Shown here: piece by piece, positions 465 through 10,047 of the stretch
How positions within the stretch are numbered: the stretch's first letter is position 1
Layout: the number at the start of each line of letters is the position of its first letter
From: a virus
Lineage: Duplodnaviria; Heunggongvirae; Uroviricota; Caudoviricetes
Virus record (IMG/VR): IMGVR_UViG_2869953405_000005
Length of the DNA stretch: 15,464 nucleotides
Reading direction: 5' to 3' (one strand)
Position numbers and translations under genes: made by a program
Notes under the pieces: generated by a model
Database searches by the model: none
What the model was told of the DNA's origin: nothing
Seen by the model: the letters and a program-made list of their open reading frames with translations, nothing else

Positions 465-522
465 AGATATACCTCCAGTTAAGGATTAAATTTTATTTAC
501 AGTGCCGGGTAATGACTCCAAC

Positions 523-1026
523 TTATTGATAGTGTTTTATGTTCAGATAATGCCCGATGACTTTGTCATGCAGCTCCACCGATTTTGAGAACGACAGCGA
601 CTTCCGTCCCAGCCGTGCCAGGTGCTGCCTCAGATTCAGGTTATGCCGCTCAATTCGCTGCGTATATCGCTTGCTGATTACGTGCAGCTTTCCCTTCAGG
701 CGGGATTCATACAGCGGCCAGCCATCCGTCATCCATATCACCACGTCAAAGGGTGACAGCAGGCTCATAAGACGCCCCAGCGTCGCCATAGTGCGTTCAC
801 CGAATACGTGCGCAACAACCGTCTTCCGGAGACTGTCATACGCGTAAAACAGCCAGCGCTGGCGCGATTTAGCCCCGACATAGCCCCACTGTTCGTCCAT
901 TTCCGCGCAGACGATGACGTCACTGCCCGGCTGTATGCGCGAGGTTACCGACTGCGGCCTGAGTTTTTTAAGTGACGTAAAATCGTGTTGAGGCCAACGC
1001 CCATAATGCGTGCAGTTGCCCGGCAT
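523..1026 (-). CDS. insB: IS1 InsB transposase component
   Basis: 167-aa ORF matching recalled IS1 InsB; position inside IS1 downstream of insA. Confidence 0.9.
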
Positions 1027-3143: not shown

Positions 3144-3321
3144 CTGAAAAATAATTCTTTAAAATACCTGACATGTAATACAGAAAAAACACAAAACCAT
3201 ACCTTAAATAAAAACCTGATTATCAAGCAGATATGCATGGATAAACTACAAGACGAGATATAAACCACCCTGCATTTAAATAAACAATAAACAACATCAG
3301 AAAAATAATTCTGCTCTATGG

Positions 3322-3348
3322 TTTACATTCAAAAATATCATTTATACT
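3322..3348 (+). promoter_or_regulatory. candidate sigma70 promoter for ORF 3389..3724 (TTTACA, 15-nt spacer, TATACT)
   Basis: Hexamers read directly from the sequence at 3322-3327 and 3343-3348; spacing is suboptimal at 15 nt. Confidence 0.3.
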
Positions 3349-3388
3349 TTTCAGAACATCACCAGCAAGGCATAAACAAGGAAACTAA

Positions 3389-3724
3389 ATGAAGTGGATT
3401 GTGATTGATACAGTTATCCAGCCATCATGCGGAATATCTTTTTCAGTCATATGGAGTAAAATAAAATTAATAATCTGGTATCAATCGGATGCTTTCTTAC
3501 CTCCTGAAAGTATATTTACACTGACTCACACAGGCATCATGCTCAATAACAAAGTGCTACCTGTAACCATTTACAACGTAGTACCATTCAATAAAACATT
3601 CTGGAATTCAATCAAAAATAGCCAGGAATGCCCTACAAATACAGATAACGTATTGAATGAATGCTTTAATAACCGTTGCACTCTGCAAATATGTCCTTAT
3701 GGACTAAAACAACAAAGTCCATAA
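3389..3724 (+). CDS. hypothetical Cys-rich small protein (111 aa), orphan
   Basis: ATG preceded by AAGGA about 8 nt upstream; 6 of 12 Ile codons are ATA (manual count); C-terminal third has 5 Cys; lies in AT-rich DNA; no family recognised. Confidence 0.45.
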
Positions 3725-3758
3725 GGAGTTTACTCACATCTGACAAAATCAATATAAA

Positions 3759-3780
3759 CAGCCCCTCCGGAGAGGGGCTG
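3759..3780 (-). terminator. intrinsic-terminator-like hairpin (9-bp perfect stem, 4-nt loop) with T-rich tract on the minus strand
   Basis: CAGCCCCTC-CGGA-GAGGGGCTG; on the minus strand it is followed by TTTATATTGATTTTG; no T-tract on the plus strand. Confidence 0.45.
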
Positions 3781-4171
3781 GAGAGTGGCGCTATGTGCCA
3801 TTGCATGGTGCCGGGTGCCTCCCGGTGAATTCAGTACCAGCACCTGAATCCGCGATTATCCCATATACCTACTCGCTGATTGCCCCTCCGCACAGGGGGA
3901 TTCACCATGCCAGTTTCTTTTAACAAACTCCCCGCAAACCAGACAACAGTCAACCGCCTGAATTGTGAAGTATTTAAAAATTTCTCCCGCTAACTGATAC
4001 CCGGCTAACAGTCTGGCGTTTTCTTTTTCAGCAACGGGAAAGCAACAACCACCACACCCGCCACCAGCACACCGTCAGCCAGCACTGACATTATCCGGCT
4101 GCTGCAATGCCATTCACAAAAACAGTAAGCAATCACTTTTTACCGTAACAGGTGATAATCCAGATATGTAT

Positions 4172-4525
4172 CTACCCCAGATGAGTAATCCGAAGTTCAT
4201 CCATACCACAGGTCCTGGCTATTCTGTTGTACTCCTGAACAAGAGCAAATAATTCTGAATTAGCAACCATGAACTCATCGCAAACCCTCTGTATAGCATC
4301 ACTATTCAGAATAATAACGTCTCTTCCCGAAAGACGATCAGGAGTACAGAACAAAACTGTCAAACGGCTGAAGGCCTTTGCTCGTGCTGCATTGACTATA
4401 TCAATACGCTGCCTAAGGATGAAACACCCCGACGCCTCATCAATATTCACTCTACCCACACCATATGAATGATAAATATTTAATGCTGAAAAAACCATTA
4501 GACCGTATAACAAACACTCAATCAA
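4172..4525 (-). CDS. hypothetical protein (117 aa), doubtful
   Basis: ORF opens right after a stop with a TTG at 4525 and no Shine-Dalgarno; first ATG is codon 10; unrecognised; may be a gene remnant. Confidence 0.2.
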   Translation of the reverse strand: MIECLLYGLMVFSALNIYHSYGVGRVNIDEASGCFILRQRIDIVNAARAKAFSRLTVLFCTPDRLSGRDVIILNSDAIQRVCDEFMVANSELFALVQEYNRIARTCGMDELRITHLG

Positions 4526-4635
4526 TACTTAACAGAACTTTTATTTTTGACAAACATAAAATATTTTCAACAATATCCTGAGCCAGGTATATTTCAGTAT
4601 AAGGCTCTGCCGGAAGGAATCTGGAAGAATGAATA

Positions 4636-4712
4636 TGGCGCGCTGTACTGGATTCGAACCAGTGACCGATTGCTTAGAAGGCAATTGCTCTGTCCGGCTG
4701 AGCTAACAACGC
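4636..4712 (-). tRNA. tRNA-Arg (anticodon UCU)
   Basis: 77-nt cloverleaf folded by hand: acceptor GCGTTGT/ACAGCGC, D-stem GCTC/GAGC, anticodon stem ATTGC/GCAAT with loop CTTCTAA, T-arm ACTGG-TTCGAAT-CCAGT, encoded CCA. Confidence 0.85.
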
Positions 4713-4812
4713 TGAATACCGATAATGGACCGCCATCGGGGACCCGCCCCCGCACCAACAACCCTGTTATCGTGTCGTCTGCTCTTCCTGATAAGCTAAT
4801 GGCGGTTTGTGA

Positions 4813-4888
4813 TGGTGGCCCTTGCTGGATTTGAACCAGCGACCTGGCGATTATGAGTCGCTCGCTCTCACCACTGAGCTAAAGGGCC
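4813..4888 (-). tRNA. tRNA with CAU anticodon, ileX/ileZ-like (tRNA-Ile2; Met not excluded)
   Basis: 76 nt: acceptor GGCCCTT/AAGGGCC, anticodon loop CTCATAA, T-arm GCTGG-TTCAAAT-CCAGC, encoded CCA; resembles recalled E. coli ileX but diverged. Confidence 0.8.
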
Positions 4889-4924
4889 GGGAGCAGAATA
4901 ATAACGGTCCGTAATTAATTCCGC

Positions 4925-4949
4925 AATAAAAAACCCGCTCGGCGGCGGG
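4925..4949 (-). terminator. intrinsic terminator between Q-like gene and tRNAs (tR'-like candidate)
   Basis: On the minus strand CCCGC-CGCCGA-GCGGG is followed by TTTTTTATTG. Confidence 0.5.
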
Positions 4950-4990
4950 TTGTAGAAACTCTTCTAACGTCAGGCATAAAACGCCCATAG

Positions 4991-5845
4991 TTATGACGAA
5001 TTTACCACAGATTCCGGAAAAATCAACCTAGTTACCTTTTTTAACTGCCGCTCAGCCCATGCTTCTTCAATATCAAACCGAGTCACCAGCGCATCATAGA
5101 ATTTCTTAACTGTTTTTTCCCATGACGCGCGTGTTATCTGGTTTGTCACCTCGCATATAGCATTAAATGCCTCCGTTGATGGTAGTCTTTCATAGCCACG
5201 ACCACCACAACGCTGGCAGTCTCTGATAACAGGCATACCACGTTTTACCGACTCTTCACGATGAATGGCGACACCACGCCCACGGCAATCCTTACAGGCG
5301 GTGGAAACCTCACCCTTTCCGCCACACTCCGGACAGGCAACTTTTACCACCTCCCTGACTTTTTTCCATTCTTCCCAGTAAGACGGATACACACCTTTCG
5401 TACACTTTGCCCATACCGGCGGCTTACCATCCGGATACTGGACCTTGTTTGTAAAAACTACGCTTTCAATAAATTTTTCCCCATAGCAACAAGGGCACTG
5501 CTTTTTACTCGCTGCGCTGCGGGCATAATCCTCAAAAGCGTACGAAGCCATAATGCGCATCACTACCGGTTTTATTTCTGCCGGAAGTTTTCTCAACGCC
5601 GCCACACGATCGCACCGACTGAGTGCATAATCTGCCAGTAATTCTGTTGCCCGCGCCCTGTCATTCATACTGATGCCCATTTTCCCCAGGAACGCAGAAA
5701 ACCCCATCTCAGCCCGATTCTGTGTCATGCCCTGCGCGGCCATCACATCAGTGATACTCAGCGCATCTTTTGACGTTGAGGCCGATGCATCGGTCAGGCA
5801 AGGGGATTTTGGGGAGTAGTATTTCGGTAAATCTTCCAGTTTCAT
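4991..5845 (-). CDS. putative lambdoid late antiterminator Q-like protein (284 aa, DnaJ-type Zn-finger motifs)
   Basis: Sits between rusA and terminator/tRNAs as in lambdoid late-control regions; CPECGGKG, CKDCRGRG and CQRCGGRG motifs; ATGA overlap with the rusA stop; Q assignment rests on position and motifs, not a verified alignment. Confidence 0.5.
   Translation of the reverse strand: MKLEDLPKYYSPKSPCLTDASASTSKDALSITDVMAAQGMTQNRAEMGFSAFLGKMGISMNDRARATELLADYALSRCDRVAALRKLPAEIKPVVMRIMASYAFEDYARSAASKKQCPCCYGEKFIESVVFTNKVQYPDGKPPVWAKCTKGVYPSYWEEWKKVREVVKVACPECGGKGEVSTACKDCRGRGVAIHREESVKRGMPVIRDCQRCGGRGYERLPSTEAFNAICEVTNQITRASWEKTVKKFYDALVTRFDIEEAWAERQLKKVTRLIFPESVVNSS
4999..5026 (-). promoter_or_regulatory. 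candidate late promoter (pR'-like): TTGATT, 16-nt spacer, TAAATT on the minus strand
   Basis: Hexamers read from the sequence; overlaps the 3' end of the Q-like ORF; predicted start lies about 40-60 nt upstream of the terminator at 4925-4949. Confidence 0.25.
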
Positions 5846-6807: not shown

Positions 6808-8777
<1,970 letters not shown>

Positions 8778-9025: not shown

Positions 9026-9931
9026 GTGGATAGCGCACGCGCCCTTATTGCCCGGGGATGGGGAGTAAGCTTAGTCAGCCGTTGTCTCCGGGTGTCGCGT
9101 GCGCAGTTGCACGTCATTCTCAGACGAACCGATGACTGGATGGATGGCCGCCGCAGTCGTCACACTGATGATACGGATGTGCTTCTCCGTATACACCATG
9201 TTATCGGAGAGCTGCCCACGTATGGTTATCGTCGGGTATGGGCGCTGCTTCGCAGACAGGCAGAACTTGATGGTATGCCTGCGATCAATGCCAAACGTGT
9301 TTACCGGATCATGCGCCAGAATGCGCTGTTGCTTGAGCGAAAACCTGCTGTACCGCCATCGAAACGGGCACATACAGGCAGAGTGGCCGTGAAAGAAAGC
9401 AATCAGCGATGGTGCTCTGACGGGTTCGAGTTCTGCTGTGATAACGGAGAGAGACTGCGTGTCACGTTCGCGCTGGACTGCTGTGATCGTGAGGCACTGC
9501 ACTGGGCGGTGACTACCGGCGGCTTCAACAGTGAAACAGTACAGGACGTCATGCTGGGAGCGGTGGAACGCCGCTTCGGCAACGATCTTCCGTCGTCTCC
9601 AGTGGAGTGGCTGACGGATAATGGTTCATGCTACCGGGCTAATGAAACACGCCAGTTCGCCCGGATGTTGGGACTTGAACCGAAGAACACGGCGGTGCGG
9701 AGTCCGGAGAGTAACGGAATAGCAGAGAGCTTCGTGAAAACGATAAAGCGTGACTACATCAGTATCATGCCCAAACCAGACGGGTTAACGGCAGCAAAGA
9801 ACCTTGCAGAGGCGTTCGAGCATTATAACGAATGGCATCCGCATAGTGCGCTGGGTTATCGCTCGCCACGGGAATATCTGCGGCAGCGGGCTTGTAATGG
9901 GTTAAGTGATAACAGATGTCTGGAAATATAG
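9026..9931 (+). CDS. insD: IS2 InsD (orfB, DDE transposase part)
   Basis: 301-aa ORF matching recalled IS2 InsD; overlaps the insC end at the A6G frameshift site. Confidence 0.9.
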
Positions 9932-10047
9932 GGGCAAATCCAGTCCGTTATAAAAACGCCGGTAAATCGTTCCCAGAGAACCGTGAGGTAGCCTGAGTTT
10001 AACGGACACTCCTTCCTGAAATAGAATGGCATCAGAAGGAGCTAATA

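Follow-up and report, generated by a model that had tools for sequence, protein, structure and literature searches.

The late operons of lambdoid and Stx phages carry cargo (moron) genes, among them stx and nanS-p, which lie downstream of Q, PR'/tR' and the ileZ-argN-argO tRNA genes. Small proteins of another kind, those of the AraC Negative Regulator (ANR) family (Aar, Rnr and Cnr), are below 10 kDa, comprise three helices and share a signature of A10, E14, A22, W26, A29, W43 and R47 (PMC4983702). Here we describe a locus in a 15,464-nt stretch of viral DNA (Caudoviricetes; IMG/VR record IMGVR_UViG_2869953405_000005; hereafter the window), in which a first-pass annotation had picked out a minus-strand frame of 117 codons as lacking a credible translation start. 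We consider it likely that this frame is the longest-ORF, over-extended reading of a small gene at 4450..4172, which starts with GTG, follows an untranslated leader and encodes a helical protein made from the late transcript. Like moron cargo, the window gene lies in the slot downstream of Q, a terminator and tRNA genes, and only some lambdoid prophages carry it; Stx phages have the tRNAs but not the gene. Unlike the known cargo, it is unrelated to any toxin or known conversion gene, and unlike typical sporadic morons its family keeps its position across genera. The closest counterpart, WP_001017777.1 of E. coli ETEC1738 (near cluster P0019, a member of the same lineage that is 63% identical to the window core), resembles the window gene in its length of 92 aa and in its GTG AAT ATT GAT start. 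The two differ in their surroundings: the ETEC1738 gene is preceded by a strong AGGAG and an unrelated upstream region and is followed by a hairpin and T-run terminator of its own (seen in L006), whereas the Shine-Dalgarno sequence of the window gene is weak, its 75-nt leader is open and no terminator is predicted between this gene and the one that follows.

The surroundings of the gene are those of a lambdoid late region. A Q-type late antiterminator gene (4991..5845, minus strand; Pfam Antiterm PF03589, E = 7e-55) has directly downstream of it an intrinsic terminator (4925..4951, minus strand; stem AACCCGCCGCCGAGCGGGTT then TTTTATT), which is likely to be the tR' that is read through by Q-modified RNA polymerase. 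Two tRNA genes come next, both on the minus strand and upstream of the 117-codon frame, which is the first ORF downstream of them, as the first-pass annotation had placed it. The tRNA with anticodon CAT (4813..4888, minus strand), called Met by ARAGORN and Ile by PGAP in the identical E. coli locus, is an ileZ-like lysidine tRNA, while tRNA-Arg (UCU; 4636..4712, minus strand; ARAGORN, Rfam tRNA 68 bits) lies 186 nt upstream of GTG 4450. Stx2 phages have a tRNA block with 88% identity to this one, so the gene occupies the slot of stx; the earlier remark that the frame lies where the first cargo gene of an Stx-type phage would sit is supported, the gene following Q, the terminator and the ileZ/argN-like tRNAs. 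Downstream, a gene for a DUF3927/TciB-like 43-aa membrane protein (4005..4136, minus strand; Pfam DUF3927 E = 1.7e-27; phrog_1470; also called by PGAP in E. coli 042) lies 35 nt after the TAG stop of the 92-codon gene, and the two are probably co-transcribed, since a scan of the window predicted no terminator between them. Beyond it lie an STnc100 sRNA match (3750-3939, 132 bits) and an IraM-like gene (3389-3724, plus strand).

Prophage DNA that matches segment 3900-5000 (1.1 kb) at >99% identity occurs in 823 complete E. coli genome records, that of strain 042 among them, and in phage mEp460_ev081. Holin, lysozyme and terminase genes come next in those genomes, and the intact relatives 042 and mEp460_ev081 both keep holin and lysozyme genes downstream. 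In the window itself IS elements have cost the prophage its lysis genes, and its remainder has been replaced by IS1, IS3-family and IS21-family elements beside an ipaH-type gene, making this a Shigella-like degraded prophage. Taken with the intact relatives, the gene order suggests a late transcript that would run through Q, the tR'-like terminator, the two tRNAs, the 92-codon gene and the DUF3927 gene and then, where these are retained, holin and lysozyme. The product would be made mainly once Q allows read-through after prophage induction, from the mRNA that remains after tRNA excision, and we infer that expression of the gene is late and Q-dependent.

A similar position is kept by the family at large. 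In prophages of the Citrobacter complex, Serratia and Morganella the order on one strand is a Q or N6-methyltransferase gene, the family member, and then holin and lysozyme, often with tRNA genes a few hundred bases upstream; the Q-to-lysis position is seen in L090, L094 and L096-L099. The ETEC1738-lineage gene occupies the slot between Q/methyltransferase genes and holin genes, and STEC prophages have the homologue between the tRNAs and nanS-p, so that placement in the cargo slot extends to STEC and other prophages. One homologue (P0035), on an ETEC-type plasmid near a K88-like fimbrial operon, is an exception to the Q-proximal position. This synteny is the strongest clue to function.

As read from the sequence, the 117-codon ORF (4525..4172, minus strand) begins with TTG at 4525-4523 and comprises 117 sense codons followed by TAG. 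An in-frame TAA lies upstream at 4529..4531 (minus strand), 27 codons before GTG 4450. The frame had been described as opening immediately after a stop codon, and this is nearly but not strictly the case, a single sense codon (GTA) standing between the TAA and TTG 4525. Its first ATG is indeed codon 10 (4498-4496), and the other in-frame candidates are TTG 4513, GTG 4459 and GTG 4450. Anti-Shine-Dalgarno scores, taken as the predicted pairing of the 20 nt upstream of each start with the 3' end of 16S rRNA, were -0.9 kcal/mol for TTG 4525, -2.4 for TTG 4513, -2.4 for ATG 4498, -2.1 for GTG 4459 and -4.5 for GTG 4450, against a window-wide background with a mean of -2.5 and an sd of 2.6 kcal/mol. 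At the opening of the frame the pairing is therefore poorer than the background mean, and the reported lack of a Shine-Dalgarno sequence there stands.

To assess coding constraint, three E. coli lineages were compared: that of the window; an AraC-linked lineage, in which the gene directly follows an AraC/HTH_18 gene in STEC prophages (L003, L004, L005 and L007); and the ETEC1738 lineage, comprising ETEC1738 and a MAG contig (L006 and L009). The proposed CDS (4172..4450, minus strand; GTG 4450-4448, 92 codons, TAG 4174-4172), here called the core, is exactly 279 nt in all three, with no indels and 67-72% nucleotide identity. Differences between lineages cluster at third codon positions (first/second/third positions: 24/23/44 for the window against L003, 19/19/40 for the window against L006 and 24/18/40 for L003 against L006), and dN/dS (Nei-Gojobori, three lineages) is 0.26-0.27 in frame, compared with 0.8-1.25 when the two other sense frames are read. 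No lineage has a stop inside the sense frame. A locus search with the three-sequence alignment returned mostly near-identical copies, which served the polymorphism analysis and not the analysis of context; the core was intact in all 82 such copies (IMG/VR and genome loci), with seven synonymous and five non-synonymous segregating sites. The 117-codon frame is not a chance ORF, since purifying selection acts on its 3' three quarters. The comparisons show 4450..4172 to be a genuine, conserved small protein-coding gene, together with its extent and synteny; it is an ordinary prophage gene and not a truncated one, and nothing here points to an unusual mechanism.

Several lines of evidence place the start of this gene most likely at GTG 4450. 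It is the only start codon common to all three E. coli lineages, in which the sequence GTG AAT ATT GAT GA is conserved. A weak Shine-Dalgarno-like element, GGTGTGGG (4455..4462, minus strand), lies 4-11 nt upstream; none of the other four candidate starts pairs as well and the value falls in the top 25% of the background, and the element is weak in that a quarter of random window positions score equally well. The element aligns with the strong CAGGAG of the ETEC1738 lineage, where L006 carries ATGGCAGGAGTAGAGTG in place of the ATGGTGTGGGTAGAGTG of the window, and from this alignment GGTGTGGG reads as a weakened Shine-Dalgarno sequence. In the ETEC1738 lineage (L006, L009), AGGAG stands 4 nt upstream of the GTG (-6.9 kcal/mol), homology to the window extends no more than 17 nt upstream of the GTG, with unrelated sequence beyond, and an in-frame TGA occurs 11 codons upstream with no start codon between. 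Consistent with this, PGAP starts both WP_001017777.1 (92 aa) and QM042_10135 at the GTG equivalent to 4450. The distant homologues begin no more than three residues from the same point, their N-termini aligning to codons 23-26, and have Shine-Dalgarno sequences of their own (-5.1 to -8.3 kcal/mol). In the phrog_4827 model, position 11 aligns to residue 33, which puts the start of the model at about residue 23. In the alignment, the ATG of the Serratia and Morganella homologues falls at GTG 4459, and a 95-aa product from this codon is possible in the window lineage; the codon is GCG in two of the 82 copies, and the other two lineages have no start codon there. We therefore infer that translation would begin at GTG 4450 (codon 26), served by the weak GGTGTGGG element, and would yield a product of 92 aa with the predicted N-terminus (f)Met-NIDEASGCFILR. 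The suggestion of a non-canonical start was apt in so far as the start is not ATG; the codon proposed here is this internal GTG and not the TTG.

The remaining 25 codons of the frame (4451..4525, minus strand), which contain TTG 4525, TTG 4513, ATG 4498 and GTG 4459, behave differently from the core. We consider the 75 nt between TTG 4525 and GTG 4450 most likely to be an untranslated leader that is open by chance in the window lineage. Among the 82 close copies this extension shows one synonymous change, five non-synonymous changes and one frameshift, the last being a 1-nt deletion in L016, whose core is intact; it is open in the other 81. Its density of segregating sites (9.3 per 100 nt) is near that of adjacent intergenic DNA (~12) and above that of the core (4.3). 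Compared with the core, the extension has a higher density of non-synonymous changes (Fisher p = 0.014), and in this respect it cannot be told apart from upstream intergenic DNA, although the ratio of non-synonymous to synonymous changes in extension versus core is not significant by itself (p = 0.18) with such small polymorphism counts. In the AraC-linked lineage the upstream frame is open in L003 and L004, whereas in L005 and L007 a 4-nt indel relative to these puts a stop six codons upstream of the GTG. The 131-nt L005-type variant is matched at >=99% identity by at least 78 of the 80 complete genomes that carry this lineage, every sampled match spanning the same 131 nt. An ungapped comparison of the window and L003 extensions does give a few synonymous-looking changes, but their best nucleotide alignment requires frame-breaking -2/+2 indels.

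Scans of the same region for other signals were negative. The leader and start region showed no stable RNA structure relative to shuffled sequence in the three lineages (z ~0), and an Rfam scan of 3300-5200 gave no match within 4172-4635. A promoter scan returned only chance-level matches, none convincing for the leader, the sole minus-strand sigma-70-like match (4570-4543, 9/12) being within chance expectation. If the extension were translated, the tryptic peptide MVFSALNIYHSYGVGR would be expected. An apparent module boundary at -79 came from one outlier copy, L046, which has an IS1 insertion 79 nt upstream of the GTG; a second apparent outlier, L016, reflects the offset from its 1-nt deletion.

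These observations bear on two readings in which the leader is translated. Were the longer frame used, translation from TTG 4525 (in some alleles GTG 4528) would give a product of 117/118 aa and translation from ATG 4498 one of 108 aa, and a hydrophobic N-terminal segment, CLLYGLMVFSALNIY, could then serve as a membrane anchor. Nearly all close copies and L003/L004 have the frame open, the phrog_2873 model has 108 positions and runs from Met10, and metagenome callers give clusters of 117/118 aa and of 108 aa; moreover, initiation can proceed without a Shine-Dalgarno sequence on leaders that are AT-rich and lack structure. We nevertheless regard this as quite unlikely. Pairing at the starts concerned is no better than background, and the extension has a substitution pattern like that of intergenic DNA, is closed in the prevalent L005 type, is frameshifted in L016 above an intact core, and has no counterpart in the ETEC1738 lineage or in any distant homologue. 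The Met10 with which phrog_2873 begins lies 16 codons before GTG 4450; this codon, ATG 4498, is AAT in the L003 lineage, the position is out of frame in L005/L007 and L016, and the ETEC1738 lineage has unrelated sequence there. Nor is the hydrophobic character kept in L003 (MIDCIRYSLNVFSIKSYNH). It is more improbable again that the leader is a regulatory upstream ORF which delivers ribosomes from TTG 4525 to the weak GTG, by in-frame continuation in the window lineage or by termination-reinitiation at an overlapping GTGA in the L005 lineage, possibly with a prior 11-codon ORF (4557..4522) whose TGA overlaps TTG 4525. Such coupling would fit the upstream frame of L005/L007, which ends in a TGA overlapping the GTG start (GCGTGAAT), the retention of a leader of ~78 nt in the lineages with weak Shine-Dalgarno sequences (window -4.5 kcal/mol, L003/L005 -2.8) and its absence from the AGGAG lineage, and the homology between the window and L003 lineages, which begins exactly at TATTGATTGA. 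However, the upstream ORF has no credible initiation signal of its own, its peptide is not conserved and aligns best with frame-breaking indels, no RNA structure was detected, and a pattern drawn from three lineages could be coincidence.

Two further readings would deny that an intact gene lies here at all. That the region is a non-coding spacer or decaying pseudogene, or that the real gene lies opposite (4269..4472, plus strand, 67 aa), might be suggested by PGAP/RefSeq, which leaves the interval from tRNA-Arg to DUF3927 without a CDS both in E. coli 042 and in all 54 sampled genomes (>=98.8% identity), and by pN/pS in the wobble-matched antisense frame, which is equally low (0.37-0.50). The low antisense values are, as expected, a mirror of the sense-strand constraint, and the antisense frame is interrupted by two stops in the window core and by another two in L003, where the ATG of the 67-aa ORF is GTG. 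With every copy intact, a sense frame unbroken in each lineage and protein homologues with their own Shine-Dalgarno sequences in six genera (E down to 1e-33), this reading is highly improbable and already contradicted by the comparative data. The first-pass annotation had itself named two findings that would count against a gene, a lack of any homologue together with no translation signal, and a frame simply antisense to a real gene; homologues exist, and it is the antisense frame that is broken. Its main suggestion, that the frame is what survives at the 3' end of a longer gene after loss of the 5' end, is scarcely credible. The heavy degradation of the prophage by IS elements and the IS1 upstream of the GTG in the related copy L046 lend it some plausibility, but neither 1.84 billion representative proteins nor a 5.8-billion-protein collection yielded a homologue of greater length, and family members of 91-99 aa span the core end to end with the same N-terminal position to within three residues. 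The spacing from tRNA to gene is also unchanged in the intact phage mEp460_ev081 and in ~1180 E. coli genomes.

The 92-aa product belongs to an uncharacterised enterobacterial prophage family (phrog_2873/phrog_4827; WP_001017777.1-like). The long frame matches phrog_2873 strongly (E = 3.8e-70, 233.9 bits; positions 1-108 of 108 against residues 10-117) and phrog_4827, which has the short form, more weakly (E = 4.2e-5; residues 33-113 against positions 11-91 of 96); both are labelled "unknown function". Relatives of 91-99 aa (up to 110 aa with extensions added by gene callers), all labelled "hypothetical protein", were found in the Citrobacter freundii complex, Salmonella, Serratia, Morganella, Xenorhabdus and Shigella, with profile-search E-values of 1e-33 to 1e-11, and those of full length align end to end with codons 23/26-117. 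In a 16-sequence alignment R48, N89 and N100 are invariant and P62, Y99 and A103 nearly so, and the core has the family motifs ER-x2-AFS-x-L-x-V...PD and AN-x-EL-x2-LV-x-EYN as well as the family length of ~92 aa. A tblastn search of 50,697 phage genomes returned a single record with the gene. Nine family members scanned with Pfam, NCBIfam and PADLOC gave no match at E <= 0.001 (best 0.0091), and a literature search on DUF3927 in prophages and on WP_001017777 returned nothing relevant.

The outcome is mainly an annotation correction, concerning a conserved small gene in the stx-equivalent slot of lambdoid prophages. The gene is missing from RefSeq in all of the sampled carrier genomes, while the locus is carried by ~1180 complete E. 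coli genomes; where it has been called, by PHROGs and metagenome callers, it bears 16-26 spurious N-terminal residues, whose resemblance to a membrane anchor could mislead functional prediction. A second useful outcome is a cleanly delimited member of an uncharacterised late-operon family, the 92-aa boundary providing a clean construct for testing the function of a widespread late-operon protein.

An AlphaFold2 model based on a nine-sequence alignment predicts an antiparallel two-helix hairpin (helices 3-34 and 50-81; pLDDT 87, pTM 0.75), consistent with a 92-aa protein that would be soluble and fold in this way. Fold searches returned only generic helical hairpins, with no match at E <= 0.001. 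Our best guess, held with low confidence, is that the product is not an enzyme but a small coiled-coil protein that binds a partner (protein or nucleic acid), either late in the lytic cycle or as lysogenic-conversion cargo. GapR/UPF0335 (DUF2312) is of similar size, and there is a weak profile match over the first helix and loop (MN..a....ks..eR.e....e.a......v.......G.DVK); this candidate was rejected, the PDB-sequence profile match having E = 0.023 over half the protein and hhalign giving 16.8% with an approximate GapR query, and there being no Pfam match. A more specific proposal is that the family forms a functional component of the late programme, as a modulator of lysis timing or late transcription or as an ANR-like anti-activator acting on an adjacent AraC-type regulator, with some members under leader-ORF control (coupling or reinitiation) at a weak GTG behind a ~78-nt leader; we consider this unlikely. 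An ANR anti-activator, a reading prompted by the AraC neighbour, was rejected as an assignment, since the ANR signature is absent and the 92-aa product has no tryptophan. The window protein differs from ANR proteins also in having two long helices and a length of 92 aa, and most family members have no AraC neighbour. It resembles them in being small, all-helical and probably oligomerising; a dimer forming a four-helix bundle would be expected. The contexts too are partly alike: in one lineage the homologue starts 21 nt after the AraC/HTH_18 gene, and the plasmid-borne homologue sits beside its fimbrial operon.

The 5′ end of the 117-codon minus-strand frame (4525..4172, with TTG 4525 as its first codon) overlaps other short open reading frames. 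An 11-codon ORF on the same strand (4522-4557; ATG TTT GTC AAA AAT AAA AGT TCT GTT AAG TAT TGA) ends in a TGA that overlaps TTG 4525, lacks a Shine-Dalgarno sequence and probably arose by chance in AT-rich DNA. On the opposite strand, the deposited annotation of phage mEp460_ev081 (L002) places a 38-aa ORF over the leader, the 25-codon extension upstream of GTG 4450, at L002 5566-5682 (+), which corresponds to about 4465-4581 (+) in the window; this is probably a spurious call, and the 92-aa gene that starts at GTG 4450 is missing from the same annotation. In one IMG/VR copy (L046), an IS1 end lies 79 nt upstream of the GTG, precisely at the leader's 5′ boundary (junction sequence …GGAGTCATTACC/GTATTGATTGAG), and the leader and the gene are both undamaged. 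Within the coding sequence itself, a consensus scan identified a hairpin resembling a terminator at 4318-4336 (-), with CGTCTTTCGGGAAGAGACG and then TTATTATT. With only three G-C pairs, it is no more than chance would produce, and the conserved PDRLSGRDVIIL codons overlap it.

Upstream of the gene, the tRNA at 4813-4888 (-) carries the anticodon CAT and was assigned to Met by ARAGORN and to Ile by PGAP at the identical E. coli locus. If the PGAP call holds, this tRNA would be ileZ-like and lysidine-dependent, as in Stx phages. In other genera, too, family members repeatedly have same-strand tRNA genes of various specificities (Thr, Met/Ile, Gly, Asn) upstream, at distances of 170-650 nt in four loci (L094, L096, L099 and L100) and about 2.2 kb in a fifth (L090), an arrangement like that of the window.

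About 80 complete genomes of E. coli, the majority of them STEC (O113:H21, O104:H21, O91), also carry a homologue, which starts 21 nt past the gene for a 241-aa AraC/HTH_18 regulator (164-889 in L003, 4323-5048 (-) in L005 and 4322-5047 (-) in L007). This locus sits in the stx-equivalent slot, in the order tRNAs, TolA-like gene, AraC-type gene, homologue and nanS-p, and, as in the window lineage, the homologue is omitted from the PGAP annotation. A 91-aa, 34% identical family member (cluster P0035) is encoded at 4001-4276 on Rep3-type plasmid contigs (L100-L102), adjoining a K88-like fimbrial usher/PapB operon. Because a tRNA-Thr gene lies about 580 nt upstream in L100, the plasmid locus appears to be a captured prophage fragment.

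IS elements are densely packed in the window (508-807 / 10498-10797; 1738-2958, 9984-10283, 11266-11980; 6808-8777; 9026-9931), and comprise two identical copies of IS1, two or three copies or fragments of the IS3 family whose repeats are 100% identical, an IS21-family istA/istB pair and one further rve transposase. Of the prophage's late and regulatory region, only about 3.3-6.5 kb is left between them. An IpaH-type type III effector gene (13713-15464 (-); Pfam matches to NEL E3 ligase at E = 6e-77 and to LRR_TTSS) extends past the window end and, taken together with the IS load, suggests that the window represents a Shigella-type degraded prophage or an ipaH island. A 378-aa ORF with a TTG start and without a Pfam match (12008-13144 (+)) lies between a fragment of the IS3 family and the ipaH gene. 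Separately, the Rfam sRNA family STnc100 (RF02076) gave a full-length match at 3750-3939 (-) (132 bits, E = 2e-30; gathering threshold 47 bits), immediately downstream of the DUF3927 gene and convergent with an IraM-like gene.
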